Positions 25,748 through 58,864 of a DNA stretch of 64,000 bases are shown here, piece by piece. Within the stretch, counting starts at the first letter, position 1. Each line of letters begins with the position of its first letter. The stretch comes from a virus (taxonomy: Duplodnaviria > Heunggongvirae > Uroviricota > Caudoviricetes), in IMG/VR virus record IMGVR_UViG_3300021255_001602, positions 1 through 64,000 of that record; one strand, given 5' to 3'. The notes under the pieces are model-generated. The model did not search any database. It had not been told where the DNA came from and worked only from the letters and a program-made list of their open reading frames with translations. The position numbers were made by a program, and so were the translations under genes.

Positions 25748-26480
25748 AAGGTAATTTGCCATCGTTAAATCGCGGGATTAAGCGGGAAGGCTGAAATGCT
25801 AATCCGAACCGAAGGCTACACTAAGTGTAGTCAGGGGCAACGCATAGAGAGTGAAAAGATATAATCTCTCCACGAGACCGCGACATTGTTTATATTAAAG
25901 GAGAATTAGTTATGGGATTTCCAACATTCACAATAGATGATTATGAAATTACTCGTAATGGAGATATTTTTAATAAAAGGAATGGGCATCAAGTTAAACC
26001 TCAACCAAACGGGAAGGGATATTTACGTGTATCAATTGGAGGTAAATTACGTTTTGTTCATCGATTGGTTGCTGAAAAATATATTCCTAATCCAGATAAT
26101 TTACCACAAGTGAATCATAAAGATGGCAATAAATTAAATAATTCAGTTGATAATTTGGAATGGGTCTCTAATCAACAAAATCGTGATCACGCAATAAAAA
26201 ATGGGTTGCATCTTTGTGGAGAAAAATGCTCTTGGGCAAAATTAACATGGGATGATGTTAATTATATTAGAGAGCACGCAGAATTGTCTAATGCCGAATT
26301 ATCCAAAAAATATCATGTTGCTGTTACAACTATTAGGGGTATAAGAAATTATAGGTCTTGGAAATATAAACAATGAAAAGATATGCTGAACTTATACGAA
26401 TGAAAAAGTATAAGAAGTAAAAGATAAAAAGCTTTTACGATAACAAAATGGGATTATCCTTCTCTTCCTGTTTGCATTTG
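25748..26480 (+). mobile_element. candidate group I intron carrying an HNH homing endonuclease ORF
   Basis: P-like GCGGGAAGGCTG and Q-like AATCCGAACC at ~25783-25809, S-like AAGATATAATCTC ~25856; HEG ORF in peripheral loop; proposed 5' exon ends in U (25747) and omega G at 26480 gives in-frame joining. Confidence 0.55.
25912..26376 (+). CDS. HNH homing endonuclease (HNH_3 type) with C-terminal HTH
   Basis: FVHRLVAEKYIPNPDNLPQVNHKDGNKLNNSVDNLEWVSNQQN is the canonical phage HNH_3 motif; intron-embedded. Confidence 0.85.
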   Translation: MGFPTFTIDDYEITRNGDIFNKRNGHQVKPQPNGKGYLRVSIGGKLRFVHRLVAEKYIPNPDNLPQVNHKDGNKLNNSVDNLEWVSNQQNRDHAIKNGLHLCGEKCSWAKLTWDDVNYIREHAELSNAELSKKYHVAVTTIRGIRNYRSWKYKQ

Positions 26481-27154
26481 GCAACGGTGGCTGGGGAGGC
26501 TACGGAAATGGTGGCGGTTCCATGGGCGCAGAGGTACAGCGTGGTTTTGATCAGTCTGCTGTAATGTCTGGTGTTTCTGGAATTCAGTCTGGTATTTCTG
26601 GTCTTTCTACTCAACTTTGTAATGGATTTGCTGGCGTTAGTGCTGGTTTTGCTAATGCTGAAACTGCGGCAACCGCTCGTCAGATGGCTAATATGAACCA
26701 AGCTTTTGCAGCTCAGACGGCTGTAACTCAGGGCATTAATCAGCTTGCGTCTCAATTTGCAGATTGCTGCTGTGAGAATAGATTAGCTTCTGCTAACCTT
26801 CAGAATGTTATTCAGTCTGAAAACTGTGCAGATAGAACAGCGCTGAATGATGGAATTCGTGATATTCTTCAGAATCAGAATGCTGGTATTCAGCGTATTC
26901 TTGATACTATGTGTCAGGATAAGATTGATGCTAAGAATGAGAGAATCGCAGACCTTGAAAGGCAACTTACAATGGCTAATCTGGCTGCGTCTCAGGGTGC
27001 TCAAACGGCTGCTATTCTGGCTAATAATGAAGCACAGACCGCAGCTCTTGAGAGATACCTCGCTCCTACTCCAGTTCCTGCATATACAGTTCCTAACCCG
27101 AATTGTTGCGGACAAAACTTTGGCACATGTGGATGTGGTTGTGGCGTAGCTTGA
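26481..27154 (+). CDS. exon 2 of split Gly-rich protein; C-terminus Cys-rich (NCCGQNFGTCGCGCGVA)
   Basis: ORF-track 26522..27154 extends in frame upstream to 26444; GNGGWGGYGNGGG continues exon-1 theme; exact 3' splice site inferred. Confidence 0.5.
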
Positions 27155-27167
27155 TGGAGGTGTAATT

Positions 27168-27632
27168 ATGGCAGAATATTTAACCAGAGATGCAGTTGAA
27201 AGCGTAGCGCTTAATGCTGCAATTCCTTTTGTGGATTCTATCCCCTGTAATCGTGGTTACATTTTTCACCAAAGTGGAACGGGGATTTTTGTTCTGCGTG
27301 GTATCGTTAATAATCCTACCGCATGTTTTGCACGCTATAATGTTGAATTTACAGGTAATATAGCAATTCCTGAAGGTGGAGCAATTACTCCTATAGCGAC
27401 CGCTATCGTGGTCTCAGGGGAAAGTCGTGATGGCAGTAGAAGTATTTTTACCCCTTCTGCCGTTGATGAATATGGGAATGTAACTTCAAGGGCTACTGTA
27501 GATGTTCCTCGTGGATGTTGTTTTACGGTTTCAGTAGAATATGTAAATGGCACTGTTAATGATTCGGCAACAACTCCTACTCCATTAATTAATGTGGTTG
27601 ATGGTAGTTTGAGTATTAGCAGAACGGCTTGA
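27168..27632 (+). CDS. hypothetical beta-rich protein (T/S/V/G-rich, CC pair)
   Basis: 154 aa; RBS GGAGGTG. Confidence 0.45.
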   Translation: MAEYLTRDAVESVALNAAIPFVDSIPCNRGYIFHQSGTGIFVLRGIVNNPTACFARYNVEFTGNIAIPEGGAITPIATAIVVSGESRDGSRSIFTPSAVDEYGNVTSRATVDVPRGCCFTVSVEYVNGTVNDSATTPTPLINVVDGSLSISRTA

Positions 27633-27648
27633 AAGGAGGGACAAGAGT

Positions 27649-28191
27649 ATGGGACTTTCTAAACATTATGATCAACTCAAAGAACTCCTTGATGATCAGA
27701 TTTGTAAGATTCTGAAAAAAGGTGATATTACTCCTCAGGAACTTGATAGTCTGTATAAAGCGTCTGCTATTATGCTTGACATGGAGACAGAAAAGGCTAT
27801 GAAAGAGTCTGGTGGTAGCGAAGAATATGAAATGAGTCACAGAGGTGATTCTTATAATAACATGGGTGGTAATTCTAATCATTATCCTTGGTTTATGTAT
27901 CATAACAATGATATGAGTCATCAAGGGAATTCTTATAGAATGCCAATGGATCAAATGAGCAATACTTATAACCATGCTTATGATGGTGCTTATGCAGGTG
28001 CGTATGATGCGTCTCAGGATAATGAATATTCTGAACGTAGAGGACGTAGCGCAAGGACTGGACGTTATGTAAGTCGTGATTCTGAAAAAGAACGCATGAT
28101 TGGAAAGCTTGAAGACATGATGGACAATGTTTCATCTGAGAAAGAGCGTAGAGCGCTCCAGCAATGTATAGATAAATTGGAACAACAGTAA
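27649..28191 (+). CDS. hypothetical protein with Tyr/His/Asn/Met-rich low-complexity centre
   Basis: HRGDSYNNMGGNSNHYPWFMYHNNDMSHQGNSYRMPMDQMSNTYNHAYDGAYAGAYD. Confidence 0.45.
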   Translation: MGLSKHYDQLKELLDDQICKILKKGDITPQELDSLYKASAIMLDMETEKAMKESGGSEEYEMSHRGDSYNNMGGNSNHYPWFMYHNNDMSHQGNSYRMPMDQMSNTYNHAYDGAYAGAYDASQDNEYSERRGRSARTGRYVSRDSEKERMIGKLEDMMDNVSSEKERRALQQCIDKLEQQ

Positions 28192-28202
28192 TTATTATTG
28201 AA

Positions 28203-28236
28203 AGGAGTCGGCTTTATGCTGACTCCTTTCTTAATT
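28203..28236 (+). terminator. possible intrinsic terminator (AGGAGTC...GACTCCT hairpin, weak T-tract)
   Basis: 7-bp stem, 11-nt loop, followed by TTCTTAATT. Confidence 0.35.
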
Positions 28237-28252
28237 ATAAAGGAGGATTCTT

Positions 28253-29059
28253 TTGGATTTTTATAAAGGTTATAAAAGAATCGAAGGGGACACTAAGTAT
28301 ATAAATACAATGCTTTCCCCTGAAAATTATAAAAATTGGTGTATTAATGAATATGCCATTATTAAAAATACGGACACTGGGCAGGAATTTGAAATGAGAT
28401 TTACAGGTGACAAGTTTGTAAATCTTAAACTTCCTGACAGCAAATATATAAAAGGGAAAAATGCAGAACAGAGGTGTGCTCTTGATGCATTAAATGATGA
28501 TAAAATTACTGCCGTTGCTTTGCTAGGAACATACGGGTCGGGAAAGACAATGCTTGCTACCGCTATGGCTCTTGACAGTGTTAAAAGAAAAGGTACGCAA
28601 TCAAAAATATTGTGTGTACGTGAAGCTTGGGGAGAAGGACGTGAAATTGGTTTCCTGCCCGGTGATGTCTCAGATAAGATAGGTTTATTTCAACTCCCGT
28701 TTATTCAGCAATTAAATGGAGGAGAGTTTGAATATAAAAGCCTAGTACAGCAAGGGGTAATTGATTCTACTGTTCTTTATTATATGAAAGGTACAACATA
28801 TAATGAAACAGTCATGCTTTGTGATGAAGCAGAGGACTTGACAGAAAAGCAAATTAAATTAGTAGGAACAAGGGTGGGCACAAATAGTAAAATATATTTT
28901 TCAGGGGATTATAAACAGTCATTGTTAGACAGCACTGAGTTTAACCCTTTATTACGCATGTGCGAAAAACTTAAAGGAAATCCACTTTTCGCGTGTGTAT
29001 ATCTGTCAGAAGATGTGCGTAGTGAGACTTCTAAAATGTTTGCTGATTTATTTGATTAA
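28253..29059 (+). CDS. phoH: PhoH-like ATPase
   Basis: TTG start with AAGGAGG RBS; Walker A LLGTYGSGKTMLATAMAL, Walker B-like VMLCDEAED; size and order typical of phage PhoH. Confidence 0.75.
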   Translation: MDFYKGYKRIEGDTKYINTMLSPENYKNWCINEYAIIKNTDTGQEFEMRFTGDKFVNLKLPDSKYIKGKNAEQRCALDALNDDKITAVALLGTYGSGKTMLATAMALDSVKRKGTQSKILCVREAWGEGREIGFLPGDVSDKIGLFQLPFIQQLNGGEFEYKSLVQQGVIDSTVLYYMKGTTYNETVMLCDEAEDLTEKQIKLVGTRVGTNSKIYFSGDYKQSLLDSTEFNPLLRMCEKLKGNPLFACVYLSEDVRSETSKMFADLFD

Positions 29060-29083
29060 AGGAATTAAAAGGAGGAAACGTGT

Positions 29084-29725: not shown

Positions 29726-29734
29726 GGATAATAT

Positions 29735-30958: not shown

Positions 30959-30962
30959 ATAG

Positions 30963-30998
30963 GAAGAGATGCGTGTGAACGTGTCTCTTCTTTATTAT
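30963..30998 (+). terminator. intrinsic terminator (GAAGAGA...TCTCTTC hairpin plus TTTATTATAT)
   Basis: 7-bp stem flanking GC-rich loop, followed by T/A-rich tract, immediately upstream of tRNA. Confidence 0.45.
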
Positions 30999-31000
30999 AT

Positions 31001-31077
31001 CGCGGGATGGAGAAGTTCGGTTTAACTCACTAGCTTCATGGGCTAGAGATTCGGGGGTTCAAATCCCCCTCCCGTTA
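31001..31077 (+). tRNA. tRNA with anticodon CAT (Met / possibly Ile2-lysidine type)
   Basis: cloverleaf: acceptor CGCGGGA/TCCCGTT (pos1 mismatch), anticodon stem CTAGC/GCTAG with loop TTCATGG, T-arm GGGGG-TTCAAAT-CCCCC; boundaries +/-2 nt. Confidence 0.55.
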
Positions 31078-31129
31078 TTTCGTATGTAACTTTTAATGAA
31101 TCAAACAGATAAAAAAGGAAGGTGATTGC

Positions 31130-32227
31130 ATGGCTTATCTTCGTGAGGTTAAGAGCCAAGAAGCTGTAAAAAAAATGAGAGTGGGCGATTTGCGAAACGA
31201 ATATAATGCTCTTGCAGAACGCTATACAAGAATCACGAAATGTGATGATTTGGTGTGTCCTTCTTGTGGACGATTAAAATCTGCAAAGAGAGAAAACTTT
31301 TATGCAGATAGAAATACAATACATGGGTTTTATCCATATTGTAAAGAGTGTGTCTTTAGAGATGCAGAGAATATAGAGAAGCCCACGGATCAGCCTAAAG
31401 AGACTAAATTGTCTGTCCAAAGAGTTTTACGGAAAATGGATAGACCTTTTATTGAAAGTTTATATATCAGTTGTGTTAATGCATATAACAATGAAGAATC
31501 TAATGATTCTGGTAAAGCAAAAATGATGCCATTCCAAAGATATATGACTCAGATAAATAGTTTCCCAGCATATAAAGATAAAACATGGGAGAACTCTGAA
31601 TGGGGTGAAAAGCTTGTTACTAAGCAACCAGATAGGATTGATATAGTCGATGAAGACCAAGAGATAATTAAACGTGGTCGTAAAAGATTTGGCGCTTATT
31701 CTGCTGAAGAACTATATCAACTTGAAAGTGCTTATGAAGACTGGGTGTCCAGATATCCTGCCGAAGCTAAGGCTCAAGAGGTTTTGTTTGAGCAGTTGTG
31801 CATACAAGATATGAGAGCCAGACAATTAGCTAAAGAGGGGTCAGATCCTAAAGATGCTATTAAATCTTGTCAGGATATTATGACAAGTTTAGGAATTAAG
31901 CCTACACAGAATTCTACTGATGCCATGACTGATCAAAAAAGTTTCGGTGAATTAATTAAAGCTTGGGAGATGGAAAGACCAATTCCTGAACCAGAGGGTG
32001 AATGGGCTGATGTGGATAGGATTGGCTTGTTAATTGATGTGTTCTTTAAAGGACACTTGGCTAAAATGCTTAATTTAAAAAATGCTTTTTCTTCTATATA
32101 TGAAAGATTTATTGGTAAATTTACTGTGACACGTCCTGAATATGAAGAGGGCGATGATACAGAAGCTATTTTTGACGAAATTTTCGGAAATAAAATGGCT
32201 CAAGAATTTGAATCGGATGATGAATAA
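31130..32227 (+). CDS. putative DNA-packaging protein (terminase small subunit candidate) with zinc ribbon
   Basis: position immediately upstream of large terminase, ATGA-coupled; CPSCG...CKEC; acidic C-terminus; function positional only. Confidence 0.35.
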   Translation: MAYLREVKSQEAVKKMRVGDLRNEYNALAERYTRITKCDDLVCPSCGRLKSAKRENFYADRNTIHGFYPYCKECVFRDAENIEKPTDQPKETKLSVQRVLRKMDRPFIESLYISCVNAYNNEESNDSGKAKMMPFQRYMTQINSFPAYKDKTWENSEWGEKLVTKQPDRIDIVDEDQEIIKRGRKRFGAYSAEELYQLESAYEDWVSRYPAEAKAQEVLFEQLCIQDMRARQLAKEGSDPKDAIKSCQDIMTSLGIKPTQNSTDAMTDQKSFGELIKAWEMERPIPEPEGEWADVDRIGLLIDVFFKGHLAKMLNLKNAFSSIYERFIGKFTVTRPEYEEGDDTEAIFDEIFGNKMAQEFESDDE

Positions 32228-34005
32228 TGGCTGAATTTATAGAAGAAACTAGAAGTATAGATGAAGTTAAAGAAGAAAAGCATAACAAATTAATGAAAAC
32301 CATTGCTTGGCGTGCTGGATATTATCGAGCAAATCCACAAAGATTTGTAAAGGATGTATTACAATTTAAAACTATTCGGTTGCGATGGTTTCAGGAATTA
32401 TTATTATGGGCAATGATGCATAATAATTACGTCCTCTACTTAGCCGCAAGGGGTCAGGGCAAAACTATGTTAGTTGCACTCGTGGCAACAATATATTGTA
32501 TTTTATATCCCGGTTCTAAAGTTATAATAACAGCACCTGTACTAAAACAGGCCGCTGAATCGTTGTTAAAAATTAGAGATGAATTTTGTCCCCAAAGTAG
32601 CTTTTTAAGAAATGAAATAGCTAAAATCAGTATAGGGCAGAATGATGGTTCAGTATATTTTAAAAATGATAGTTGGATTAAAATAACTACTAGTACAGAC
32701 AATGCACGTTCCGCTCACTGTAATATTATTATAGTAGACGAATATGTTAAAACAGATAAACGTATTATTGATAGTGTTATTCGTGAATTTTTGAAAGCCC
32801 CTCGATCACCGGGCTACCTTAGTAAACCAGAATATTCCCATCTTCAAGAACGTAACAAAGAAATATATATGTCTTCTGCATGGTTAAAATCAAGCTGGGG
32901 TTATGATAAATTTTTAGCGTATTTTAAAAACTTCATTAATCCAAAAAGAAAATATTTTGTTTGTGGTCTTCCTTATCAGATATCTATTCTTGAGGGTTTA
33001 TTAATGAGAGATGAAGTTGAAGACCGTATGTCAGAAGACGATTTTGATGAAGTTGCTTTTCATATGGAAGATGATTGTTTTTGGTATGGTGATAATGAAG
33101 GTGGTGTGTTTAGTTTTGATGAAGCCACCCGACTTAGAGTAAATAAAAAAGGATTACTACCTTTGAAGTTTTACTCTAAAGATAATCCTGTACCATTGGC
33201 TCCTAGAAATGGAGAACGTATATTGTCAGTTGACGTTGCACTTATGGCTTCTACTAAAAAGAAAAAAAATGACGCCGCCGCTATATATATTAATGACGCA
33301 ATTAAAACTACAGATACAAAATATAAAGCCCACTTTATATTTGGTGATACTTTTGAGGGACTTACTACAGATGAATTGGCTTTAATTGTTATGAGATATT
33401 TTTATGAGTATGGTTGTACATATTTAGTACTTGATACCAACGGGAGTGGCTTAGGAGTTTATGATTATATTATAAAAGACCAATATGATCCTGAAACAGG
33501 GAATACTTATAAAGCTTTGACTTGCTGTAATAATGATGAAATGGCACAGCGTTGTAAAGTTCGTGATGCTAAAAAAGTTGTTTATTCTGTTAAAGCGTCA
33601 GCCGATTCTAATAGTGTATATTGTCTCTTACTCCGTAATGCAATTCAGAATGGCAATGTTGATTTCTTAGTATCTGAGAATGATGCGGAAATATATCTTT
33701 CTAAAGAGTTTAAAGGCTATAAGAAATTAACCGTATATGAAAAGGGTGAATTGCTTAAATCATATGCAGAAACATCTGCTGCTATTTTTGAGTTGGTAAA
33801 ATTAAAAGGCTATTATAAAGATGGCAAACTTAAAGTGTATGAGACTAAAGGTAATCGAAAAGACCGTTACTCTTCTCTGTCATATAATTACTGGTGTATG
33901 AAACAATTAGAATTGCAATTAAAACCTAATATGTCTGATGTGGAACAGCTTGTATATAGTCTTCCTATTAGAAGAGGACGTACAAGAAATAATAGAGTTA
34001 TTTGA
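32227..34005 (+). CDS. terL: terminase large subunit
   Basis: Walker A LAARGQGKTML, Walker B IIIVDEY, C-terminal RNaseH-like nuclease region; 592 aa. Confidence 0.8.
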   Translation: MAEFIEETRSIDEVKEEKHNKLMKTIAWRAGYYRANPQRFVKDVLQFKTIRLRWFQELLLWAMMHNNYVLYLAARGQGKTMLVALVATIYCILYPGSKVIITAPVLKQAAESLLKIRDEFCPQSSFLRNEIAKISIGQNDGSVYFKNDSWIKITTSTDNARSAHCNIIIVDEYVKTDKRIIDSVIREFLKAPRSPGYLSKPEYSHLQERNKEIYMSSAWLKSSWGYDKFLAYFKNFINPKRKYFVCGLPYQISILEGLLMRDEVEDRMSEDDFDEVAFHMEDDCFWYGDNEGGVFSFDEATRLRVNKKGLLPLKFYSKDNPVPLAPRNGERILSVDVALMASTKKKKNDAAAIYINDAIKTTDTKYKAHFIFGDTFEGLTTDELALIVMRYFYEYGCTYLVLDTNGSGLGVYDYIIKDQYDPETGNTYKALTCCNNDEMAQRCKVRDAKKVVYSVKASADSNSVYCLLLRNAIQNGNVDFLVSENDAEIYLSKEFKGYKKLTVYEKGELLKSYAETSAAIFELVKLKGYYKDGKLKVYETKGNRKDRYSSLSYNYWCMKQLELQLKPNMSDVEQLVYSLPIRRGRTRNNRVI

Positions 34006-34015
34006 GGAGGTGCAT

Positions 34016-35608: not shown

Positions 35609-35623
35609 AAGGAGGTTTCAAAA

Positions 35624-35812: not shown

Positions 35813-35823
35813 GGGGGTGTGTT

Positions 35824-43390: not shown

Positions 43391-43409
43391 ATGGCTTTTA
43401 AACTTGGTT
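43391..43409 (+). CDS. proposed exon 1 of major tail protein (MAFKLG..)
   Basis: good RBS GAAAGGAAGG 9 nt upstream of ATG 43391, but reading frame stops after 7 codons; downstream MTP body has no RBS of its own. Confidence 0.35.
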
Positions 43410-43777
43410 ATTAAATAGCCACTTTATACGGTAACGTATATCGCTTATGTTGGTGAACATATATTTATATGGTGTGTAATTCACTTTTGGAATCGTAGGA
43501 AATGACGATGAAGAATTATGCTAACAGGGGAAGCCTAAGTTGTTTTAGCGTAGACAATATGGTAATCCTGTGCCAAGCCTATTTATATAGGAAGGTCAAA
43601 CGATCATCCCGAAGGCAGTGAAATTCTGCAACAGGAGTAGGGCTAAGTGAAATTCTTAGTGGGTGAGAATCCCTTAAATCGAAGTGCCAACTATCCATTA
43701 TAATAAATGGATAAAGATATGATCTATTCCCTAATAAATATTACGAAAGTAAGGGTGTATAAAGGATTTAATTATTG
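43410..43777 (+). mobile_element. candidate group I intron 1 in major tail protein gene (no ORF)
   Basis: P-like CAGGGGAAGCCTAAG ~43524, Q-like GGTAATCCTG ~43561, R-like GGTCAAACGATCATCCCG ~43590, block AGTGGGTGAGAATCCCTTAAAT 43658-43679, S-like AAGATATGATC ~43707; 19-nt exon ending in U plus omega-G at 43777 restores frame. Confidence 0.55.
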
Positions 43778-44400
43778 ATAGAATTTCCATGGGTTATGCC
43801 GAGAAATTTGATGGCACACCTCTTTATGTCCTGACTCAGCTTTCTGAGGCTTCTATTGAGATTTCTGCAGAGTCTCGTGACGCTGTTGATAAGGACGGTA
43901 CGCTGATTAAGCGTTTCTGGAACGCAAAAACTGGTGAGTTTACTGCGACTAACGCAATGCTCAACCTGAACGTTATGGCAGCTCAGTCTGGTAACGATGC
44001 TAATATCGCTACTGCTGATAATGTTATTGTCATGCCTAAGATTATCACTGTTAAGAGTGGTACTACTGTCGATCTGGAGGGCTTTGTTACTGGTAATCGT
44101 ATCAGTGTGAATGCTCTGGGTACCAATGGTGCTATGGGTAAGGCTTATACTCAGGGTACTGCTGCTTCTGCGACTGAGTTTGGTCTGAATGGTACTAAAC
44201 TGACTCCTCCTACAGATACAACTGAGGCTCAGTATGTTGTTAAATATGATCGTCAGGTTACTGAGGGTGTTGATATTCTTAACTCTGCTGACAAGTTCCC
44301 GGCTACTGTTCGTCTGACTCTCAAGGGTCTCTGTGTCGATCCCTGTGAGGCCGATGTGCTGCGCGCTTTGTCGCATATTTATAATGATTTTTTCGTTTAT
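43778..44400 (+). CDS. major tail protein, exon 2 (ORF track 43789..44409)
   Basis: KFDGTPLYVLTQLSEASIEISAESRDAVDKDG... typical of Firmicute siphovirus major tail proteins; no SD upstream of its ATG; exon boundaries approximate. Confidence 0.6.
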
Positions 44401-44700
44401 AATATGTAAATGACGATTATAGAGTAATCTATATACACTTGCACATCGTTAAAATAAAATAAGTGTCAATAACAGCTATATCAGGGGAAGCCCAGAGATG
44501 GGTAATCCTGAGGAAAGACTTGGTAATATTATCAAGAATCCGCAACGACTACAGGATAAGACAACCAATTGTTTTATCGAAGCTGTTGCCCACAAGAATG
44601 ATGTGGGATGATATATAGTCTGAACTCACGCAATAATCTAAATAAGAAACGTGAGAGATAGGTAGAAATTCCTATCCGCTATAGTAATATAGTCAGTACC
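44401..44700 (+). mobile_element. candidate group I intron 2 in major tail protein gene (no ORF)
   Basis: P-like CAGGGGAAGCCCAGAG 44482, Q-like GGGTAATCCTG 44500, S-like GATATATAGTCTG ~44612; same P/Q pattern as intron 1. Confidence 0.5.
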
Positions 44701-44894
44701 CAATAAGCACTGGGGAAAGTAACAGTTTGGTTTACATCGTGCTTCCGTCCTTCCAGCCTAGCCCTGAGACCACTATCGCTCTGAATAGTGATAATCCTAC
44801 TCTGGACTTCAACGGCAGCTTGCAGGTTGACTACTGCTCGACTGATAAGGCACTGTATCATGTTTACTATGCAACAGCTGATGCTGAGCAGTAA
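44701..44894 (+). CDS. major tail protein, exon 3 (C-terminal ...LVYIVLPSFQPSPETTIALNSDNPTLDFNGSLQVDYCSTDKALYHVYYATADAEQ*)
   Basis: stop-free, protein-like frame (open from 44688) ending TAA 44892-44894, not preceded by any start codon/RBS; start approximate. Confidence 0.5.
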
Positions 44895-44925: not shown

Positions 44926-44941
44926 TAAATATAACTAATGG

Positions 44942-44976
44942 CATGGTGGGTGTCACAGCCCACCATGTTTTTATTT
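44942..44976 (+). terminator. strong intrinsic terminator (CATGGTGGGT/GCCCACCATG 10-bp stem, TTTTTATTT)
   Basis: GC-rich hairpin plus T-run only ~16 nt downstream of the promoter -10. Confidence 0.7.
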
Positions 44977-45022: not shown

Positions 45023-46264
45023 ATGCGAAAATGTGATTTGACAAAGGTTCCTAAAATTCTGAAAAATGGTAAAGAAGCCTGTGATTGGAGAAAAACTATT
45101 GGATTAAGTATACCATTTGAGTATGATGGTTTAAAGGATAGTTTTAAAATTGTGGGCTTCGAATCAAGAGATAAAGTATATGTGATATATAGAAATAAAA
45201 AATATATGCTTTATGGGAAATATATAAAAAAAGGCAGAATTGCCAAAATATTTGGGCAAACAATAGAATGGAAATATGCTGAAGGTGATATAATTAAAGA
45301 TCATATTGGTTCACATGATAGAAATATATTAATAACCGCAAGAAAATACGTTGAAATAAATAATAATCCAAATAATAGAAATCATAAATATTATCAATAC
45401 AGATGTTTAATATGTGGATATGATTGCGCTATGGATGATTTCTGGGTTAATGAGGCAGATTTAAGAGACGGTAAAGGATGCGGTTGTTGTGCGGGGACTA
45501 AGGTTATTGTAGGTGTAAATGATATATCTACTACCATACCTTGGGCTGTTCCTTATATTGATGATATTAATTATGTTCATACACATACTAAGACCAGTAA
45601 TAAAAAAACTGATATGACATGTCCTATTTGTGGTTTTAAAAAGAAAATGTGTGTGAGCAATTTATATTTTCAATCTTTTGCATGTCCTAAGTGTTCTGAT
45701 GGGTTTAGTTATCCAGAAAAATTTTTTCTTAATATTTTAGAGCAAGTAGGGGTAAAATATAAGACTCAATTAAATAAATCTGATTTTGAATGGTGTGAAA
45801 AATATCGGTATGATTTTTATTTGCCAGAATACCATTGTATTGTAGAAACGAATGGCGCACAACATTATGAAGACGGATGGCATAAAATAGAACTGCAAAG
45901 AAAGATTGATAAACAAAAGAAAGAATTAGCTTTGCAAAATGGAATTAAACACTATATTGAGTTAGATTGTAGTCGTTCTGAAAAAGATTATATCATACAA
46001 TCTTTAATTAAATCTAATATACCATTTGATTATTCTAATGTTGATTTTAATAAAGCCGACTTAGCAGCACAAAAAAATGTGTTAATTGCAACTTGTAAAT
46101 TATATAAGAATAATCCTAATATGACTCTTGCTAATATTGCAGATGAATACCATGTTCATATTAGTACTGTGGTGCGATATTTACAGAAAGGGAGAGAATT
46201 AGGATTATGTGATTATCGAGAATCTTTAAAAGGTAATCATAAGAAACGAAACAAAGGAGCGTAA
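45023..46264 (+). CDS. free-standing homing-endonuclease-like protein (zinc ribbons plus PD-(D/E)XK-like core plus C-terminal NUMOD1-like HTH)
   Basis: CLICG/CPICG/CPKC zinc knuckles; YDFYLPEYHCIVETNGAQHY (D...E.T/K nuclease-like); C-terminal TLANIADEYHVHISTVVRYLQKGRELG HTH; located between MTP and TMP where HEGs often sit. Confidence 0.5.
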   Translation: MRKCDLTKVPKILKNGKEACDWRKTIGLSIPFEYDGLKDSFKIVGFESRDKVYVIYRNKKYMLYGKYIKKGRIAKIFGQTIEWKYAEGDIIKDHIGSHDRNILITARKYVEINNNPNNRNHKYYQYRCLICGYDCAMDDFWVNEADLRDGKGCGCCAGTKVIVGVNDISTTIPWAVPYIDDINYVHTHTKTSNKKTDMTCPICGFKKKMCVSNLYFQSFACPKCSDGFSYPEKFFLNILEQVGVKYKTQLNKSDFEWCEKYRYDFYLPEYHCIVETNGAQHYEDGWHKIELQRKIDKQKKELALQNGIKHYIELDCSRSEKDYIIQSLIKSNIPFDYSNVDFNKADLAAQKNVLIATCKLYKNNPNMTLANIADEYHVHISTVVRYLQKGRELGLCDYRESLKGNHKKRNKGA

Positions 46265-47060: not shown

Positions 47061-47063
47061 ATT

Positions 47064-47312
47064 ATGTTTGGACATGATCTTATTACGCCTAATCTTCATC
47101 CACGACCTTATTATCCATCTGAAGTAGTACGGATAGTTAATTCGAAGCAATTTAAATTATATATAGCGAATGGGATTTATCCTATTGATGTGTATACAGG
47201 TATGGACAGGAAGACAGGCAAGACGATTTTAGTAATGATTTTCTTAAAAGAGGAAACTAAAGAAGCCTATGAGTTATGGTGCAAGTATGAACTTGAGGAG
47301 GATACGATATGA
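47064..47312 (+). CDS. hypothetical protein (82 aa)
   Basis: ORF track, ATGA overlap downstream. Confidence 0.4.
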   Translation: MFGHDLITPNLHPRPYYPSEVVRIVNSKQFKLYIANGIYPIDVYTGMDRKTGKTILVMIFLKEETKEAYELWCKYELEEDTI

Positions 47313-47779
47313 CTACTCTTCTATCTCTTGACACCAGTACTACATCTACGGGATGGGCTATTTTCAAAGATGGTGAATATCAAGAATCTGGTGTCATTGA
47401 TGATTTTAAAAAAGTAAAGAATGGCTATGAACGTCTTAAATTAATGACAAAAGAGTTATTAGATAGTATTGGACAATTAAAGCCCGATATTATTGTTATT
47501 GAAAAAGATGTTGTGTTTGGAAATATGAAAGTTATAGATATGCTCATGAAAATTATTGGAGCGGTCTATGGTTTTTGTTTATTTAATGGAATTACATATT
47601 ATGAATTTGCGCCCAGTGAATGGCGTAAGTATGTGAAGCTTCAGGCATTTGGTAGAAAACGAGATGAGTTTAAGAAAGCTTCAATTAAATATATTAAGGA
47701 TAATCTTAATATGGATGTAAATGATGACGAAGCAGATGCTATATGTATTGGGCTGGCATACTGCAAAAAGTTTGGATAA
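47309..47779 (+). CDS. RuvC-like Holliday junction resolvase
   Basis: LLSLDTSTTSTGWAIF (cf. RuvC ILGIDPGSRVTGYGV), catalytic acidic residues (VIEKD..., ...DDEADA) in RuvC-like spacing; 156 aa. Confidence 0.7.
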   Translation: MTTLLSLDTSTTSTGWAIFKDGEYQESGVIDDFKKVKNGYERLKLMTKELLDSIGQLKPDIIVIEKDVVFGNMKVIDMLMKIIGAVYGFCLFNGITYYEFAPSEWRKYVKLQAFGRKRDEFKKASIKYIKDNLNMDVNDDEADAICIGLAYCKKFG

Positions 47780-48888: not shown

Positions 48889-48904
48889 ATAGGAGGAATA
48901 AGAT

Positions 48905-51900
48905 ATGGCTCAAGGTACATTTGAAGGTGGTACAGTTACAATAAGAGGGGATGCTTCCCAATTAAAGAACGAATTGTTAGAAGTTAGTGAACTGTTAACC
49001 ACGTTAGAAAAAAGTAAGGTAAAATTAAAACCCGAAATTGATGTAAAAGATATAAAAAATCAAATCAACAAATTAGGACAGTATATGGAGGGTAGATTTG
49101 GAGCACTTGATTTTAGTAAAGTATATTCTGGTTTAATGTCGAGTGCTCAAAAGGATGGTAATAGATTTGCTAGTCAATTAAGCAGTACTATACGCAGCTT
49201 GAATTTATTAGATCAAGCTGTTAAACCAGAAGATGTAAGTAAACTAGCAGCGGCTTCAGCTGATGAAATTTCTAATCTTGTTGATGGAATAAATGGATTA
49301 TCACCTAAAACCAAACCAACTAGTAATTTAATTACTAAGAGATTACAAGCCCTTTATGATAAATATCCTAATGGTATCGAAGGATTAGGTGGTTCTGGTA
49401 AAGGTGGCGGTTTTGGTGCGTCTGAAGAAGCATTAAATAGAATTGGAGACACTTTAGATCGAATAGACGCTAATGTCCAAGGTATTACTGAATCTATTCG
49501 TAATGGTACTGGTACGTTAAAGGTAGCATCTCAAGACGCAGAAAAATATGCTGGAAGCATGGAAAAAGCTGAGACAGCGGCTAATAAGATGCAGACAGCA
49601 GTTGATAAGATGAAGCAAAAACAACAAAGTGTCAAAAATGCTTTAGAAGGTGAAAAAGTTGAAGCAGATTGGGATTGGACTTTACAGTATCTTAATGGGA
49701 CAAAAACGCCTACCTCGAAAAAGATTTCTAAACCTAAAACTCAAGTATCTGAAGCCCAACCTGAAATAAAAGTTTCTGCTCCTGATGTAACGCCGATAAA
49801 AAATGTGGTTAAAGCAGAAGAAGAGTTACATAATGCTGTGGAAGGTGCTACTGATGCTTTAAGAGAGCAGAATGACGCATTGCAAAACAACAGTATTTCC
49901 GTTCCTTCAACGGATAAAAAAGGATTAAGTTTTACAAAGGCAGTTGAACAAATTGGGGCACCAAAAGAAATTGCCAAATATTTAAAAGACCCGAAAAGTA
50001 TTAAGACCATTTTAAAAGGATTAGATGATGATAGTCTTAAAGGATTAGATATAGATCAGATACTTACTAATTTTTCAAATGATGATGATGCAAAATTAAA
50101 TAAAGCGTTAAATGATAAAATGAGAAGAGCTGCAATGTATGTTCAACAGATTGCGGCGATGTTCCCTGATGATTGGGAGGATATGTTTTCTGGTTTTTCA
50201 ATTTTTTCGCAAGGAGTAATGGGCAACTGGGCAGATGACATTGCTGCATTTTTTGAACAAACCAATGATTTAGTGGATGAAGCAACTGGTGATATTGATG
50301 ATAGTCGAGTAGAAGGATTGAAAATTACTTATGATAAATTAGTCGAAATAATGCAAGAATGGGCTGATTTATATAATACTGTTCGTCCAATGCTTGACAA
50401 AGGTATGTCTAAACAAGATATCGACACACGCTTAGATTTAATGAAGGGGTTTACTGAAGAAGATGTAAAAAGCAGTGAGTTGGGTACTTCTGGAACTGTT
50501 GATTTATATTCTCAAAAAATTGAGCAAACTCAACAACGACTTGATCAAATGGCTGAATTAAAATCATTATTAGATCAAGAAGAAGCGGCAGGACGAGTGC
50601 TGTCTGATCGGGAACTTATCTTTTTAAATAATTATCAAGAGTATGTAAATAAAGGCAACGCTATAGTTCAAAACGCAACAACAAGAAAAACCGCTTTAGA
50701 AAATCCTGAAGCTGTGCGTGAAGTGGCTCGTCAAAAAGTAGAACAAAGACAGCAAGAAAGTCAAATTAATTTTGAACAAGAAACATTAGAGGCAGCTAAG
50801 GCACAAGAAGAATTAGCAAAATCAGTAAGAGAGGCTAATAATGCCTTAAAGGAACAGAATGATGTTGGTAAAGATAATATCATGTATCACATGGGCAACT
50901 TGTCTGCTTCGAAAACTAAAGAAATTAGTCACCCATTTGGAGATGAATTTAAAGCGTGGTTTGAAGGGATTTATGATTCTGGAAGAGGTTGGGGTGATGG
51001 AACTGGTTTATATATGACCAGAAATAGAGATGAATACGCTCCCGAAATCGACCAGAAATCTTTAGAGAATTTTTATGCTATTGATACTTCAGGATTAAAT
51101 CTTTATGAAGCACACACAGAAGAAGCCGCTCAAGATTTTTACAATTTTATTCATCATATTGAACAATTATGTTTGCAAATTGGTACAGGAACAGAGAAAT
51201 TTGATGATAATTTAAAAGATATTGATTCAGAAAGTTTGTATACAGACTTTCAACGGGTATTTCCTAATATTCAGTTGTCATTTGAGCAATTTGATGATTT
51301 TATTACTAATATGTCTACAATGCTTGCTGATTCTGGACTTGATGAGAATGGTATTGCTGATGCTCAAAAATTAAATGCTTTTAAACAGAAATTCGGCAGC
51401 GATGATATAAAAACACGATTCCTTAAAATGCTTGGATATCAAGGTACAGATTTAAGTGGCACATCTTATGGTGGACTGCAATCAGGAAATGTGGTATTTG
51501 ACCCATTGGATAAAAATCGTATTATTGCTCAAGGTAAAAATATTGAGCAAGTTGCCCAAGAAGCTGTACAAAAAACAAAACAAGCATCAGAAGAAGCAAA
51601 GAAAAACGCAGATGATGCTAAAAAGGCGGCTGAAGAAGGTAAGAAAGCTGTAGAGGAAACTAAAGATAACAAAGAAAAAGCTGATGCCGTAATTCCTACT
51701 TCTGAATCTGCCCCTGATCTACAATCTACTATAGACAATGCTAATCAAGCAAATACCGAAACTGAAAAGCAGGTAATGTATGTAGAGCGTTCTTTCGATA
51801 CACTTAATAATTATTTAAGACAATATACTCAGGAATTAGCACAAAAGAAGCAAGAACGAGATGCGTTATTACAACAAATTCAATCTCTTCAAGATGGTAC

Positions 51901-54900: not shown

Positions 54901-56314
54901 TATTCAAGGACGTATCAACACTTATTTTACTAGTTATAAAGGTGCCTATACAAGCTTCTTTAGAGAAATAAAAGATTCCTTTAAGTCTCAGGCATTAGGC
55001 GAATTGCAGAATGAAATTGATCGTACATTTCAGACATTTGAAGATAGTATCACAAATCTTAATCGTGCTACTGGATTAAATCAAGGTGATTTTCTTAATA
55101 AAAATCTTAACACCAATGGTGGCAAAGCTACTGCTGGTCAGATTGAACAGCAACAAAAAATCAGAAATGCTATTGCTGAAAGTTATCGTGGATTAATTAC
55201 AGATATTTCTGATGAACTTACTAAAGTTCAAGACAGAATGGGTAACGTTTTAGGCGAAGGATTTTTAAGTCAGGATTACTTTAAGAATTTTGGTGAAAAA
55301 TTCACTGCTGGATTGGGTGATGCAAGTGAGTTTAAAGAATTTCAAAATAATGCACAAGGTGCTGTTGATTCATTAAATGAATTGCAAAAAATTCAAGAAC
55401 GCATGGCTAATGGCAGTCTTGATTTGACTCAACTAGCACCTGATAAATTAAAAGATCAGATTCAAGAAATTGTTAAATTATTTGCTGATCTTAATAAAAA
55501 TTATGCTGAAGTAGTTGAAAAGTCTAAGCAGTTTACTTTTGCTGATGTGGGGGATATTGAAAGACAAAGGGCGGGTATTACTCAGTTTATGAAGAGTAAT
55601 CCGGGTATCAGTGCTGATGCTAAAGCACAATTACAAGGATACTTTGATCAATTACAACAAGGAATAAGTCAAGCAGATTTTACAAAATTATCAGATGGAT
55701 GGAAACAAGTTGCGGATGCTGAACAAGCCGCTGGTAGGACTGGTGCTACATTTATGTCTGAACTCCAGACTCGTTTCAAATCCTTAGGCGCTTATCTCCT
55801 GTCCTTTGTTTCATTCTACAGAGTAATCGGTGTTTTCAAAGATGGTATTAATATTATCCATGAACTTGATGACGCTTTGACGGAAATGCAAAAAGTTTCA
55901 GATGAAAGTCTGAGTAGTTTAAGAGAATATCAAAAGAGTACATTTGATACAGCAAATCAGATCGGTACGACTGCGGCTCAGTTACAGACAAGTACTGCTG
56001 ATTGGATGAGGCTTGGTGAAGATTTACAAACAGCATCTCAATCTGCACAAACCGCAAACGTACTGTTTAATGTTTCTGAATTCGATAATATTAATGACGC
56101 AACAACTGCATTAGTTGCTATGAGTGCTGCGTATGCTGATGCGGAAGAAGGTATCGATAAGATGGACATCGTAGATAGATTGAATCTTATTGGTAATAAT
56201 TATGCAATAGCAACTGATGAATTGGCAACTGCTCTTCAGGATGGTGCAGCTGCATTACAAACAGCAGGGAATGATCTTGATGAAGCTATTGCTTTGACAA
56301 CAGCAGGTGAGATT
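48905..56314 (+). CDS. tail tape measure protein, exon 1 (~2470 aa; long coiled coils, Pro/Thr/Lys-rich linkers, conserved TMP core begins at its end)
   Basis: giant K/E/Q-rich coiled-coil ORF; C-terminal ...AMSAAYADAEEGIDKMDIVDRLNLIGNNYAIATDELATALQDGAAALQTAGNDLDEAIALTTAGEI resembles TP901-family TMP core; reading frame then hits a stop inside intron-like sequence. Confidence 0.6.
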
Positions 56315-56947
56315 AAATTGCCTGAATGCGTGGCGACACGTATATAGAACACATCTAATTGCTGGAAATCCTATTAGGATAATTAGCAGCGAAGCCATAT
56401 TGACATATGTTAATTAAAACGTATAATATATATGGAACGTTCAACGACTATTCCCGTGTCGGGGTTAGGACTAGAGAATACATATCCTAATCAATAGAAG
56501 TACGGCTCAATCGCAAATGGAGTGGGTGAGAATCCCTTAAATGGAAATGGTGTGCTCTCTTTTATTAAAGAGATGAAGATATAGTCTGATCCTACGAGTA
56601 ATCGTAGAAACAATATGTATTAATTAAATAAGCATATTAACAGTTATATCTTGCGAATATAACTGAACGTAAATGAATTTAATCACACAAGACGCCTCTA
56701 AAACGGGTAAACATTTGCCCTTAGATAACTATATCGGTTAAAAGCTGGGGACAGTTAAGACCGAGGTAACTCATAATAAAATGAGGCACCGTAGAGACTG
56801 CGGGGTATTATAGGTAACTATAATGCTGAAGTTATCCGTTATTTTAATAACGTAATATACAGTCCGATCTCACGATATAATCTAATTAATGAAACGTGAG
56901 ACATAGCCGGAAATGACTATGCGCCATATTTATATGGTCAGTAAGCG
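56315..56947 (+). mobile_element. candidate group I intron (TMP intron 1, ORF-less, ~630 nt)
   Basis: R-like GTTCAACGACTATTCCCGTG ~56446, 49-nt block AGTACGGCTCAATCGCAAATGGAGTGGGTGAGAATCCCTTAAATGGAAA 56499-56547, S element AAGATATAGTCTG ~56576; in-frame rejoining at U 56314 / G 56947 gives ...TTAGEI|KAESNRMKGVRTIALRL. Confidence 0.55.
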
Positions 56948-57280
56948 AAAGCTGAAAGTAACAGAATGAAAGGTGTTCGTACAATCGCCCTTCGTTTAAC
57001 AGGTACTAAAGAAGCGGCAGAAGAACTTGAAGAAATGGGTGAAGATACCTCTGACATGATAGTATCTCAATCCAAAATGCGTGAACTGATTATGAATGCT
57101 ACAAAGGTAGCTTCAAATAATTACAAAGGATTTGATATACAAGACGAGTTAGGTCGCTACAAATCAACTTATGAGATAATGTTGGGTCTCTCCCAAATCT
57201 GGGACGAAATTCGTCAAGCCGACCTTAAAACAGGCGATAACCGTCAGAACTTATTGCTTGAATCAATTGCAGGTAAATTT
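56948..57280 (+). CDS. tail tape measure protein, exon 2 (ORF-track 56966..57340 region; ...GVRTIALRLTGT...LLLESIAGKF)
   Basis: TMP-core-like sequence continues in frame with exon 1; no RBS; ends in intron. Confidence 0.55.
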
Positions 57281-58864
57281 TTGCCTGAAATATATGGAAA
57301 CATATATTTTAGAATGCGTTTAAATGCGTTGATTACCTAAAGCCTTATGCCACAATATAGGAGAAATCACTATATGAAGGATTAACAAGTTAAGGATGAT
57401 ACAATGGTTAATTCGCAGCGAAGCGCCTAAGTATGTTTTAATTAAATATATATGGTGAACGTTCAGAGACTATCCCCGTGTAGGGGTCTTAATAGACCAA
57501 TAGGAGTACGGCTCAATCGCAAATGGAGTGGGTGAGAATCCCTTAAATGGAAACAGCGCATATCCTAACAGATCAAGCTGAGGATAAAGAAATAGTCCGT
57601 GCTTGTGTGAAAGCATAAGAATAATGAATATTAATAGACAAGGAGCAATTATGGCAACAAGAATTTCAAAAGAATTAATTCAAATAATGTATGAAAAATA
57701 TGATAGTGGAATGACTATTGTTGATATATCTAAAGAAACAGGTGTAGGACAAGATACTGTTCGTAAATATATACGAAAAAGTGGACGCAAGCGTAGACCG
57801 TCAATAGAAAAACGGATCGGAGAAGAAGGAATTAAACAGATATGTAATTTATATACTCAAGATGCAATGGATGAGATACGTAGGCTATATCCTGATCTTA
57901 CTAAACAGCAAATATATAGCATTGCCAGTCGGCATCAAGTTAAAAATACTAATTATTTTTGGAGTCAAGAAGAGGTAGAATTTCTAGTTAATAATTTTGG
58001 CATTCTGTCTTATGATGAAATAGCGGCTCATTTTAATAATAGACATAACGTAAAAGCTATATCTACTAAAGCTATAAAACTTGGATTAACGACCTCTCAA
58101 CATTGGACTAAAGAAGAAGAGGATATTATAATTAAATATTACCCTCATATTCCATTAAACGAGGTGTTACAAATGCTTCCTCGCAGAAGTGCAAATGGTT
58201 TAAAGATACACGCTCTAAAAATGGGTGTTAAAGGGCTACAATATCTTTCTGAAAAATATTCAGATGAACAAAAACAATTTATTCTCGATAACTATGTGCT
58301 AATGTCTGACGAAGAAATTGCAAAAGTACTTGGTAAAACACCAGTTGGAATAAAAGAACAAAAACGGAAACTTGGCATTTATCAATTTAATAAAGAATAT
58401 CAAGGGTATGAAAGTTTGAGTAAATTACTTAGAGGTCAAATATCGACTTGGAAAAGATTAAGTTGTGAGCAGTGTGGTTATCAATGTGTTTTAACTGGGT
58501 CTAAAAACTTTGAAATACATCATTTATATAGTTTCAATAAGATATTGCAAGAAGCATTTGAAAGATGTAATGAACAAGGACTATTAAAATCTTATAATAT
58601 AGAAGATTACACCAAAGAAGAGTTGGATGTTATTATTCAACTTTTTTTAGATATACACGAAACCTATCCTTTAGGCGTATGTGTTGAAAAAGACTTACAT
58701 AAATTATTTCATGATATTTATGGTACAGGTGGCAATGTGCCAGAACAATGGGATGATTTTGTAAACAGATATAAAAAAGGTGAGTTTAATAATGTAAAAG
58801 CATCTTAGTTAATATTCATTATTAGGTAGATTTGCGACCTACCTTAACATTTCAAAAAAATAGG
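57281..58864 (+). mobile_element. candidate group I intron (TMP intron 2, ~1.58 kb) carrying an HNH homing endonuclease
   Basis: R element GTTCAGAGACTATCCCCGTG ~57468, identical 49-nt block 57505-57553, S element AAGAAATAGTCCG ~57590, then HEG ORF; exon 3 frame open from 58826. Confidence 0.55.
57651..58808 (+). CDS. intron-encoded HNH homing endonuclease with multiple N-terminal HTH repeats
   Basis: C-terminal CEQCGYQCVLTGSKNFEIHHLYSFNKILQE...H = C-x2-C...HH...N...H HNH motif; N-terminal repeated helix-turn-helix-like segments; ATG 57651 with AAGGAG RBS. Confidence 0.7.
   Translation: MATRISKELIQIMYEKYDSGMTIVDISKETGVGQDTVRKYIRKSGRKRRPSIEKRIGEEGIKQICNLYTQDAMDEIRRLYPDLTKQQIYSIASRHQVKNTNYFWSQEEVEFLVNNFGILSYDEIAAHFNNRHNVKAISTKAIKLGLTTSQHWTKEEEDIIIKYYPHIPLNEVLQMLPRRSANGLKIHALKMGVKGLQYLSEKYSDEQKQFILDNYVLMSDEEIAKVLGKTPVGIKEQKRKLGIYQFNKEYQGYESLSKLLRGQISTWKRLSCEQCGYQCVLTGSKNFEIHHLYSFNKILQEAFERCNEQGLLKSYNIEDYTKEELDVIIQLFLDIHETYPLGVCVEKDLHKLFHDIYGTGGNVPEQWDDFVNRYKKGEFNNVKAS

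Follow-up and report, generated by a model that had tools for sequence, protein, structure and literature searches.

What divides the late genes in this 64,000-nucleotide (nt) stretch of tailed-phage DNA (IMG/VR record IMGVR_UViG_3300021255_001602, positions 1 to 64,000; hereafter the window), and how many separate elements are involved? An initial annotation had proposed that five gaps between positions 25,748 and 58,864 are group I introns which split late genes at high density. This holds for all five gaps, four of them by matches to the Rfam group I intron model RF00028 and the gap 25748–26450 by other evidence. The count however has to be raised, since the gap 56309–56968 consists of two introns and a mini-exon, so that from 25.6 to 58.9 kb the window very probably contains six group I introns, or six introns in 33 kb, all of which interrupt late genes, three in number. 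Intron A lies in a small membrane protein gene near the lysis genes (gene A), B1 and B2 in a virion structural protein gene (gene B), and C1a, C1b and C2 in the tape-measure gene (gene C), where they fall within a span of 340 coding nucleotides in the conserved core. The earlier statement that three introns are in tail genes is amended accordingly: three are in the tape-measure gene, two in a PHROG 2729 virion structural protein of unproven role and one in the small membrane protein. By sequence the introns fall into three families, namely B1, C1a and C2 with the extra hairpins P7.1/P7.2, B2 together with C1b, and intron A, whose family is invisible to Rfam (all coordinates are given in Table 1).

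The junctions of all six introns can be fixed to the nucleotide, because each site is uninterrupted in related contigs (denoted by L numbers; 86–97% protein identity), from which precisely the proposed intron is missing. Such intron-less alleles are L020–L022 for A, L100–L105 and L109 for B1, L100–L102 and L109 for B2 and, among others, L005 and L007 for C1a, C1b and C2. In addition, the spliced products are collinear with PHROG 16490 (gene A) and with tape-measure proteins of cultured phages (gene C). The source itself we infer to be an uncultured, large, siphovirus-like SPbeta/Sundance-like phage of about 150 kb, with Bacillota as hosts of its closest cultured relatives. Its portal protein shares about 30% identity with the portals of Sundance and SPbeta-like phages, and ERZ28612978 scaffold_101, a public contig with the same genes, measures 154 kb. 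The phage is represented in rumen/gut data, namely in assemblies ERZ12302814 and ERZ28612978 and in run SRR873598.

The P1 and P10 pairings, which had been suggested as a check of the candidates, were found at all six introns by script. P1, between the guide sequence and the upstream exon, ends in a U·G pair in all six and comprises 6 base pairs (bp) in A, 4 (+2) in B1, 5 in C1a, 4 in C1b and 5 in C2, while in B2 only three of five positions pair at the site defined by homology. P10, with the downstream exon, ranges from 3 to 9 bp (A 6, B1 7, B2 6, C1a 9, C1b 3 and C2 6). A terminal guanosine (ωG) is present in five of the six introns (G26450 in A, G43764 in B1, G44729 in B2, G56675 in C1a and G56968 in C1b), C2 being without it. 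Exon and internal guide sequence (IGS) covary in relatives for P1, and P10 shows compensatory changes in L042 and L045 (intron A) and in L106 (intron B2).

Searches with RF00028 (gathering score 50 bits), a covariance model in which the order of the elements and their pairing are scored jointly, gave highly significant matches for four gaps and none for the gap 25748–26450. In the whole window, C1a scored 79.4 bits (56299–56608; E 1.6e-18) and C2 70.2 bits (57264–57619; E 8.9e-16); when 1.9 kb was searched, B1 scored 40.4 bits (43399–43746; E 2.3e-8) and B2 38.9 bits (44388–44632; E 6.5e-8). The alignments to the model draw P1 to P9 for these four introns. A permissive whole-window Rfam scan showed nothing beyond the gathering scan and its filters dropped both 40-bit introns, hence a negative result of such a scan is weak evidence.

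The P, Q, R and S strings quoted initially are all present within a few bases of their reported positions. The P/Q pairs are CAGGGGAAGCCTAAG at 43525 with GGTAATCCTG at 43561, CAGGGGAAGCCCAGAG at 44482 with GGGTAATCCTG at 44500, and GCGGGAAGGCTG at 25782 with AATCCGAACC at 25801; R-like elements are GTTCAGAGACTA (57461–72), GTTCAACGACTA (56439–50) and GGTCAAACGATCA (about 43585), and S-like elements AAGATATAGTC (56576), AAGAAATAGTC (57587), GATATATAGTC (44610), AAGATATGATC (43714) and AAGATATAATC (25856). Taken singly, these motifs are not above chance. If up to 2 mismatches are allowed, an S-like 11-mer is found 30 times over the two strands of the window, and short R, S and Q motif scans were rejected as an intron finder for being too noisy. 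Short-motif scans with three family-specific elements gave no further copies in the window, and apart from the spacer of a tRNA-Met gene and two short spacers the window has no other gap of at least 120 nt free of open reading frames (ORFs) that could serve as a further intron site.

Several points weigh against the reading of all six as group I introns. Only two of them (C1a and C2) are found by RF00028 at the curated threshold, B1 and B2 both staying below it, and neither intron A, with or without its 3' part, nor C1b gave a match at E up to 10; the ORF-less members of the intron A family are missed as well. The guide of B2 pairs with the homology-defined 5' exon at only the three of five positions mentioned above. 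The last base of C2 is A58855, in a run of seven A's which is identical in three independent assemblies, and no G occurs within 19 nt upstream of the homology-defined 3' junction, which conflicts with the ωG requirement. The assignment of the C2 ORF as an endonuclease is putative and rests on weak family matches. Finally, splicing of all six introns is a prediction from DNA sequence.

For intron A the Rfam miss is outweighed by P1 with its U·G pair, P10, ωG, the precise intron-less relatives and covariation within its family, so that the gap 25748–26450 is, as judged from sequence comparison, a real group I intron. The spliced gene A, three genes downstream of the endolysin, would encode a Gly/Trp-rich membrane protein of 268 residues; a single continuous match to phrog_16490 covers residues 6–266 and runs across the junction, which reads ..TGGT|GGATTAT.. 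in the three intron-less alleles. P1 is formed by 25742–47/25758–63 (GAUGGU/GCCAUC, with U25747·G25758) and P10 by 25752–57/26451–56 (UAAUUU/GGAUUA). The remaining helices are P3 (25770–75/25878–83), P4 (25783–86/25803–06), P6a (25814–21/25825–32), P7 (25842–46/26382–86), P7.1 (25847–51/25866–70), P8 (25884–96/26363–75), P9 (26391–97/26408–14) and P9.1 (26417–23/26432–38); P1, P10, P3, P7, P7.1 and P8 were checked by script. While the P/Q assignment proposed for this gap was right, the presumed S at 25856 belongs to the P7.1 hairpin, of which it makes up the loop and the 3' strand. The true R is GGCAACGCATA at 25836–46 and the true J8/7-P7' is AAAAGATATGC at 26376–86, downstream of the HNH ORF.

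A 32-nt stretch of the P4-P6 region of intron A recurs exactly in 36 viral-contig DNA stretches, and many members of the family are ORF-less, about 240 nt long and placed in many different exon contexts. Among at least 27 distinct viral-contig sequences, P3, P6a, P7, P7.1, the outer P8, P9 and P9.1 are paired in all or nearly all cases and show many double substitutions, with covariation at five of the six pairs of P3. P7 switches between GCAUA/UAUGC (window), the canonical GACUA/UAGUC and GAAUA/UAUUC, and an extra P7 pair beyond a bulged base alternates between A-U and G-C; this P7 with its bulge is the classical R/S arrangement. The 13-bp P8, which closes the HNH ORF, differs wholly in sequence between members yet is always paired. 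An alternative P3, GGGAUUA/UAAUCUC, which would have made the 25856 element P3', was rejected as this pairing is lost in L042 and L045; UCGCGG/CCGCGA was taken instead, because it and the P7.1 hairpin covary. The ORF matches PF13392 (42.6 bits, cut-off 24.8; 4.5e-11) and the HNH endonuclease family phrog_59 (7.8e-45) and is predicted to be an intron-encoded HNH homing endonuclease.

Two relatives showed additional insertions. L134 contains an intron of the Rfam-invisible family at 999–1240 and, about 200 nt downstream, a second and unrelated group I intron (1436–1674; 97 bits with RF00028), which was the sole RF00028 match when the ORF-less members were searched; it is another example of closely spaced introns. 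In L079, a gene A relative carries an insertion (about 659–737) at another position, equivalent to window 26745–26819, whose 3' tail resembles that of intron A and yet has the canonical S sequence GAAGATATAGTC, suggesting a second insertion site in the gene A family.

The tape-measure gene begins at 48905 and is still open where the window stops, with more than 4,280 codons after splicing, and its protein is collinear with those of Enterocloster phages, Brevibacillus phage Sundance and SPbeta at 24–31% identity. A product spliced across the two gaps as they were first drawn falls short of the cultured-phage homologues by 11–12 residues at its first junction and by 3 at the other. In L005 and L007 the region is uninterrupted (94% and 90% identity) and reads ...ALTTAG-NLITQDASKTG-KG(I/V)RTIALRL..., and because they carry NLITQDASKTG in place, the gap 56309–56968 can be resolved into C1a, a mini-exon encoding this peptide, and C1b. 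The mini-exon fills the 11–12-residue gap, and one of the predicted junction-spanning peptides of the product is TTAGNLITQDASKTGKGVR.

C1a has its P1 at 56304–08/56320–24 (U56308·G56320), and its long P10 at 56311–19/56676–84 (GAUUAAAUU/AAUUUAAUC) marks the 3' splice site; a 3' site at 56968, considered before, was overturned by the reading frame and the intron-less alleles. The intron is absent from L005 and L007 and present in L012–L015. C1b has a P1 GGGU/GCCC (56705–08/56717–20, U56708·G56717), a P10 at 56714–16/56969–71, an R-like GTAGAGACTG (56791–800) and an S-like AATATACAGTCC (56854–65), and is precisely lacking in L012–L015 and L009. Its 3' domain is about 80% identical to that of B2. 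Comparison of C1b with B2 and three further lineages revealed compensatory changes in P3 (AACAGC/GCUGUU versus AUAAC/GUUAU), P4, P5, P6a, P7 (GACUA/UAGUC versus GACUG/CAGUC), P7.1, P8 and the P9 hairpins, all five lineages covarying in P4, P5, P7, P8, P9 and P9.x. All members share a conserved AACAG, and the fourth base behind it is ωG; placing the 3' splice sites of B2 and C1b at the AACAG itself was rejected by reading frame and intron-less alleles. As C1a and C2 share the identical exon/guide pairing CAGGU/GCCUG and the 339 nt between them are a multiple of three, in-frame skipping between the two introns is possible, and we speculate that the tape-measure protein might be made in two lengths in this way. 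For the last tape-measure exon alone, the gene calls of one public contig include a 3,093-residue product.

Gene B starts at 43391 behind a good ribosome-binding site, and its product matches the PHROG 2729 'virion structural protein' (phrog_2729; 6.1e-13); as the tape-measure gene follows some 4 kb downstream, it may be a tail protein. Megablast and tblastn searches against cultured phages and a PDB sequence search gave nothing useful for it. The B1 junction AAACTTGGT|GATTTAATT is found in the intron-less L100–L102 and L109 as well as in L103–L105, P1 being formed by 43405–08/43418–21 (U43408·G43418) and P10 by 43410–16/43766–72. B1, C1a and C2 have in common an insertion of 75–100 nt between R and P3' that contains the 19-mer GGGTGAGAATCCCTTAAAT.

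The B2 junction reads ..CGN GCN|GTN TAC.. in L100–L102 and L109, which places the 5' site at U44367 and the 3' site at G44729, with the IGS GACGA at 44412–16 and P10 at 44406–11/44730–35. In relatives, exon and guide change together (AGCU/GGCU in L105, CGCU/GGCG in L106–L108), whereas in the window, L103 and L104 the guide is GACG, leaving a C·A mismatch with the native exon. The same guide pairs at five of five positions (script) with UCGUU at 44393–97, 30 nt downstream of the homology-defined site. The 30-nt segment up to U44397 is in frame and stop-free and would add ten residues, LSHIYNDFFV, to the protein; since by our estimate an AT-rich stretch of this length is in frame and stop-free by chance in about 15% of cases, the shifted site is suggestive only.

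Directly after gene B, the sequence at 44940–44975 (+) resembles an intrinsic terminator, with a T-run behind a GC-rich hairpin (CATGGTGGGTG...CCCACCATG); in the Rfam scan it gave weak, chance-level small RNA matches. The adjacent 413-residue ORF at 45023–46264 (+) matches HNH/homing-endonuclease PHROGs (phrog_559, 6.9e-25; phrog_9084, 9.8e-19) and looks free-standing. The alignments of the fully intron-less L100–L102 and L109 stop at about 44976, before this ORF, as do those of L106–L108, which carry B2; only L103–L105 continue. As the stops are found in both kinds of alleles, the ORF does not track the introns cleanly.

C2 had been taken to end at 58864. It ends at 58855, 9 nt earlier, and 58856–58864 (AAA AAT AGG) encode the KNR of the tape-measure protein directly before GCG. 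In L005, L007, L012, L014, L006 and L009 the junction region reads GCA GG(T/A) AA(A/G) AAC CG(T/C) GC., and K and R are conserved in all five uninterrupted homologues. P1 lies at 57270–74/57283–87 (U57274·G57283), P10 at 57277–82/58856–61, and a 15-bp stem (57620–34/58809–23) closes the peripheral loop that holds the ORF. The junction was placed after A58855 because homology, the conserved K and R and the 6-bp P10 agree. The second step of group I splicing is known to depend on the conserved ωG (PMC2588497). A literature search on natural non-G ω nucleotides gave nothing decisive, and since for the C2 ORF only relatives from the same lineage were found, ω could not be compared across variants. 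Three possibilities are seen for C2: poor ligation at A58855, use of the in-frame G58864 with loss of KNR, or a genuine exception to the ωG rule. The ORF product shows several helix-turn-helix (HTH)/Myb-like repeats and a C-terminal CxxC..HH (HNH-like) motif, as read from the sequence, and matches phrog_323 (1.3e-25) besides weak matches to HNH/DNA-binding PHROGs and sub-threshold HTH Pfam matches.

These two splice sites are the basis of a reading that we consider rather unlikely, in which all six elements are by origin group I introns, with C2 and perhaps B2 crippled or spliced at non-canonical sites. C2 might then be ligated inefficiently at A58855, or else be spliced at G58864 with deletion of KNR, and B2 might be spliced at U44397, inserting LSHIYNDFFV. 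The A at the end of C2 in three assemblies, the in-frame position of G58864, the complete alternative P1 of B2 as opposed to the incomplete native one and the stop-free frame of the additional 30 nt are in line with it. On the other hand, the KNR codons are kept in the window, the P10 of C2 points exactly to 58855|58856, a 30-nt frame of this kind is expected by chance in the estimated 15% or so of cases, and the lineage occurs in several metagenomes and is presumably viable. Bolder still is the combination of ligation of C2 after its 3'-terminal A by means of the 6-bp P10, a shifted 5' site in B2 and a tape-measure protein of two lengths, which jointly we regard as unlikely. In this case ωA may be tolerable in C2 as a virion needs only few copies of the tape-measure protein, and mutation of the B2 guide from GGCG to GACG would have shifted the 5' site by 30 nt and turned intron sequence into ten new in-frame residues of a virion protein.

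Readings without group I introns fare much worse. That the gaps are intergenic spacers, or decayed gene fragments left by the insertion of endonuclease genes, might be suggested by the gene callers of the public contigs, which annotate separate small genes such as those of 34 and 210 residues flanking the HNH gene, and by the two free-standing endonuclease-like genes elsewhere in the window. Relatives lacking each gap precisely and in frame, the covariance-model matches, the helix covariation and the presence of P1, P10 and ωG at the exact junctions effectively refute this reading, which we hold to be very improbable. Still less probable, to a degree that makes it negligible, are group II introns, inteins, insertion sequences or miniature transposable elements, which have nothing specific in their favour and were considered only because two gaps contain ORFs. 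The Rfam scans covering all six gaps gave no group II match, neither intron ORF matches a reverse-transcriptase family, in-frame stops in all gaps exclude inteins, and the junctions show no target-site duplications.

Six group I introns thus remain the preferred reading, from which self-splicing, endonuclease activity and mobility can be predicted. By analogy with the group I mechanism, each intron RNA would fold into a P3-P9 core, the guide would pair with the end of the upstream exon in P1 and present the U·G wobble at the splice site for attack by a free guanosine, and the 3' end would dock, aided by P10, whereupon the exons would be joined and the frames restored as in the close relatives. 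As DNA, the introns are likely mobile. Four (B1, B2, C1a and C1b) are ORF-less, and two appear to retain endonuclease genes (HNH in A, HTH-rich and HNH-like in C2), the products of which would cut intron-less alleles during co-infection, so that repair copies the intron in. In L013, the same C2 intron together with 23 nt of downstream exon is found in a diverged exon background, a pattern as expected from homing with co-conversion.

Across related contigs the presence and absence of introns form a mosaic whose combinations vary from contig to contig. When mapped on the uninterrupted protein, at least seven intron positions lie within about 200 tape-measure codons (near reference residues 1014, 1039, 1052, 1063, 1132, 1165 and 1211). 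L013 contains C1a and C2 without C1b; L012, L014 and L015 contain C1a and a C1b-like intron at another site, the insert of L012 holding a 429-residue ORF; L006 and L008 contain C1b and an intron at yet another site, with a 334-residue ORF in L006. ORF-containing introns at other sites of this stretch are present in L006, L012 and L018, while the enlarged intron at the C1a site of L009 has no ORF of at least 80 residues. The ORFs of L006 (1939–2943), L012 (1561–2850) and L018 (4184–5527) have cysteine-rich N-terminal repeats and a shared C-terminal motif (..IEYDGEHHY.., ..VEVHGIQHY.. and ..IEYQGEQHY..), suggesting a nuclease family other than the two of the window.

Table 1. Exons, introns and intron-encoded reading frames of the three interrupted late genes (window positions)
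Feature	Position	Strand	Basis or remark
Gene A exon 1	25645..25747	+	34 codons plus 1 nt
Intron A, 703 nt, group I, ORF in P8 loop	25748..26450	+	boundaries from intron-less alleles
Predicted intron-encoded HNH endonuclease, 154 residues, in P8 loop of intron A	25912..26376	+	PF13392 HNH_3, phrog_59
Gene A exon 2	26451..27154	+	intron-less alleles, PHROG match
Gene B exon 1, 6 codons MAFKLG	43391..43408	+	intron-less alleles; phrog_2729
Intron B1, 356 nt, group I, P7.1/P7.2 extension, no ORF	43409..43764	+	RF00028 and intron-less alleles
Gene B exon 2	43765..44367	+	end by homology; alternative end 44397
Intron B2, group I, no ORF	44368..44729	+	362 nt by homology; 332 nt if 5' splice site U44397
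Gene B exon 3 including stop codon	44730..44894	+	intron-less alleles
Tape-measure exon 1, 2468 codons	48905..56308	+	collinear with Enterocloster, Sundance and SPbeta tape-measure proteins
Intron C1a, 367 nt, group I with P7.1/P7.2, no ORF	56309..56675	+	RF00028 79.4 bits
Mini-exon, 33 nt, NLITQDASKTG	56676..56708	+	identical peptide in L005, L007
Intron C1b, 260 nt, group I, B2 paralogue, no ORF	56709..56968	+	B2 alignment, intron-less alleles
Tape-measure exon 3, 102 codons	56969..57274	+	homologue alignment
Intron C2, 1581 nt, group I with P7.1/P7.2, ORF in peripheral loop	57275..58855	+	RF00028, intron-less alleles
Intron-encoded ORF, 385 residues from ATG, putative homing endonuclease	57651..58808	+	phrog_323; sequence motif
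Tape-measure exon 4, starts KNR (AAA AAT AGG)	58856..64000	+	open to window end

Some further features of the window were observed. The ORF at 9625–10716 (+; 363 residues) has matches among homing-endonuclease PHROGs, one of them a GIY-YIG family; since it is tightly flanked by complete ORFs and has no nearby Rfam match, we take it for a probable endonuclease gene of the free-standing kind. The tRNA-Met gene (anticodon CAT; 31000–31078, +) is flanked by an exonuclease-like gene and by the ORF that precedes the large terminase. The ORF at 32227–34005 (+) matches the large terminase only from about profile position 250 onwards (phrog_2, 250–563 of 807), and the abutting upstream ORF at 31130–32227 (+) matches only phrog_3314, a family of unknown function. 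A RuvC-like Holliday-junction resolvase gene (47309–47779, +; phrog_159, 1.2e-24) closely precedes the tape-measure gene and is thereby surrounded by tail genes, which is an unusual position.

The arrangement has practical consequences. Gene callers split these genes, giving the 34- and 210-residue pieces for gene A and a tape-measure protein that apparently ends at 56347, therefore metagenome protein catalogues carry truncated products. The Rfam-invisible family, with its exact 32-mer, could seed a better model. Furthermore, the locus suggests that the accumulation of introns extends beyond the DNA-metabolism genes emphasized by recent surveys to late structural genes, that the conserved tape-measure core is a hot spot of insertion and that an 11-codon exon can persist between two ribozymes, while the ωA and shifted-P1 cases would be informative on how the two splice sites, 3' and 5', are chosen.

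Group I introns in phage genes, several of them per structural gene, and exon skipping are long established. What goes beyond routine here are the six introns in 33 kb, the tape-measure cluster with its 33-nt exon, the hot spot, the family missed by Rfam and the two non-textbook splice sites. The td, nrdB and sunY introns of phage T4 belong to subgroup IA2 and are accompanied by endonucleases. B1, C1a and C2 likewise have canonical R and S and extra hairpins between P7 and P3', at the place of P7.1/P7.2 in IA2 introns, which makes them tentative candidates for this subgroup. In both cases ORFs are placed in peripheral loops and the model of homing with exon co-conversion applies (for the context of T4 mobE/I-TevIII see PMC2790892). 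The T4 introns differ in their host genes, and C2 differs from them in lacking ωG.

Closer in terms of interrupted genes are siphoviruses, in which late genes are also affected and presence varies among relatives. Introns occur in the terminase and putative tape-measure genes of Lactobacillus delbrueckii phage JCL1032 and in the lysin gene of a Streptococcus thermophilus phage. Capsid and tail genes of Cluster J mycobacteriophages contain group I introns as well (PMC3706429). All these cases have one intron per gene as opposed to three in the tape-measure gene of the window, and neither a mini-exon nor a cluster of at least seven sites is described for them, as far as checked.

The introns of Staphylococcus phage Twort orf142 were reportedly described by Landthaler and Shub in 1999. 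According to PMC11878797, orf142, the tail tube gene, contains three group I introns, and further introns are found in other Twort genes. As in the window, a single late structural gene of a phage with Bacillota hosts contains several introns of the self-splicing type, some introns have an ORF and others none, and short internal exons open the possibility of exon skipping, which has been reported for orf142 and for the polymerase of Bacillus phage SIOphi (PMC11878797). Unlike in Twort, the host gene is the tape-measure gene, one internal exon has only 33 nt, three families are involved, two of which have members undetected by RF00028 (A and C1b), and splicing is a prediction from sequence.

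The initial comparison of the intron density with Twort-like and SPO1-like phages was a fair one, as besides the three introns of orf142 there are six in two genes of SIOphi, a member of the Bastillevirinae (Herelleviridae), where alternative splicing occurs (PMC11878797). The intron load per genome, the presence of several introns per gene, homing endonuclease ORFs in peripheral loops and introns found only beyond Rfam hits are common to the Bastillevirinae and the phage studied here. The Bastillevirinae introns however reside in DNA polymerase, terminase, thymidylate synthase and ribonucleotide reductase genes, and the study of these phages asks why only DNA-metabolism genes are invaded (PMC11878797), whereas all six introns of the window lie in genes of the virion and lysis region.

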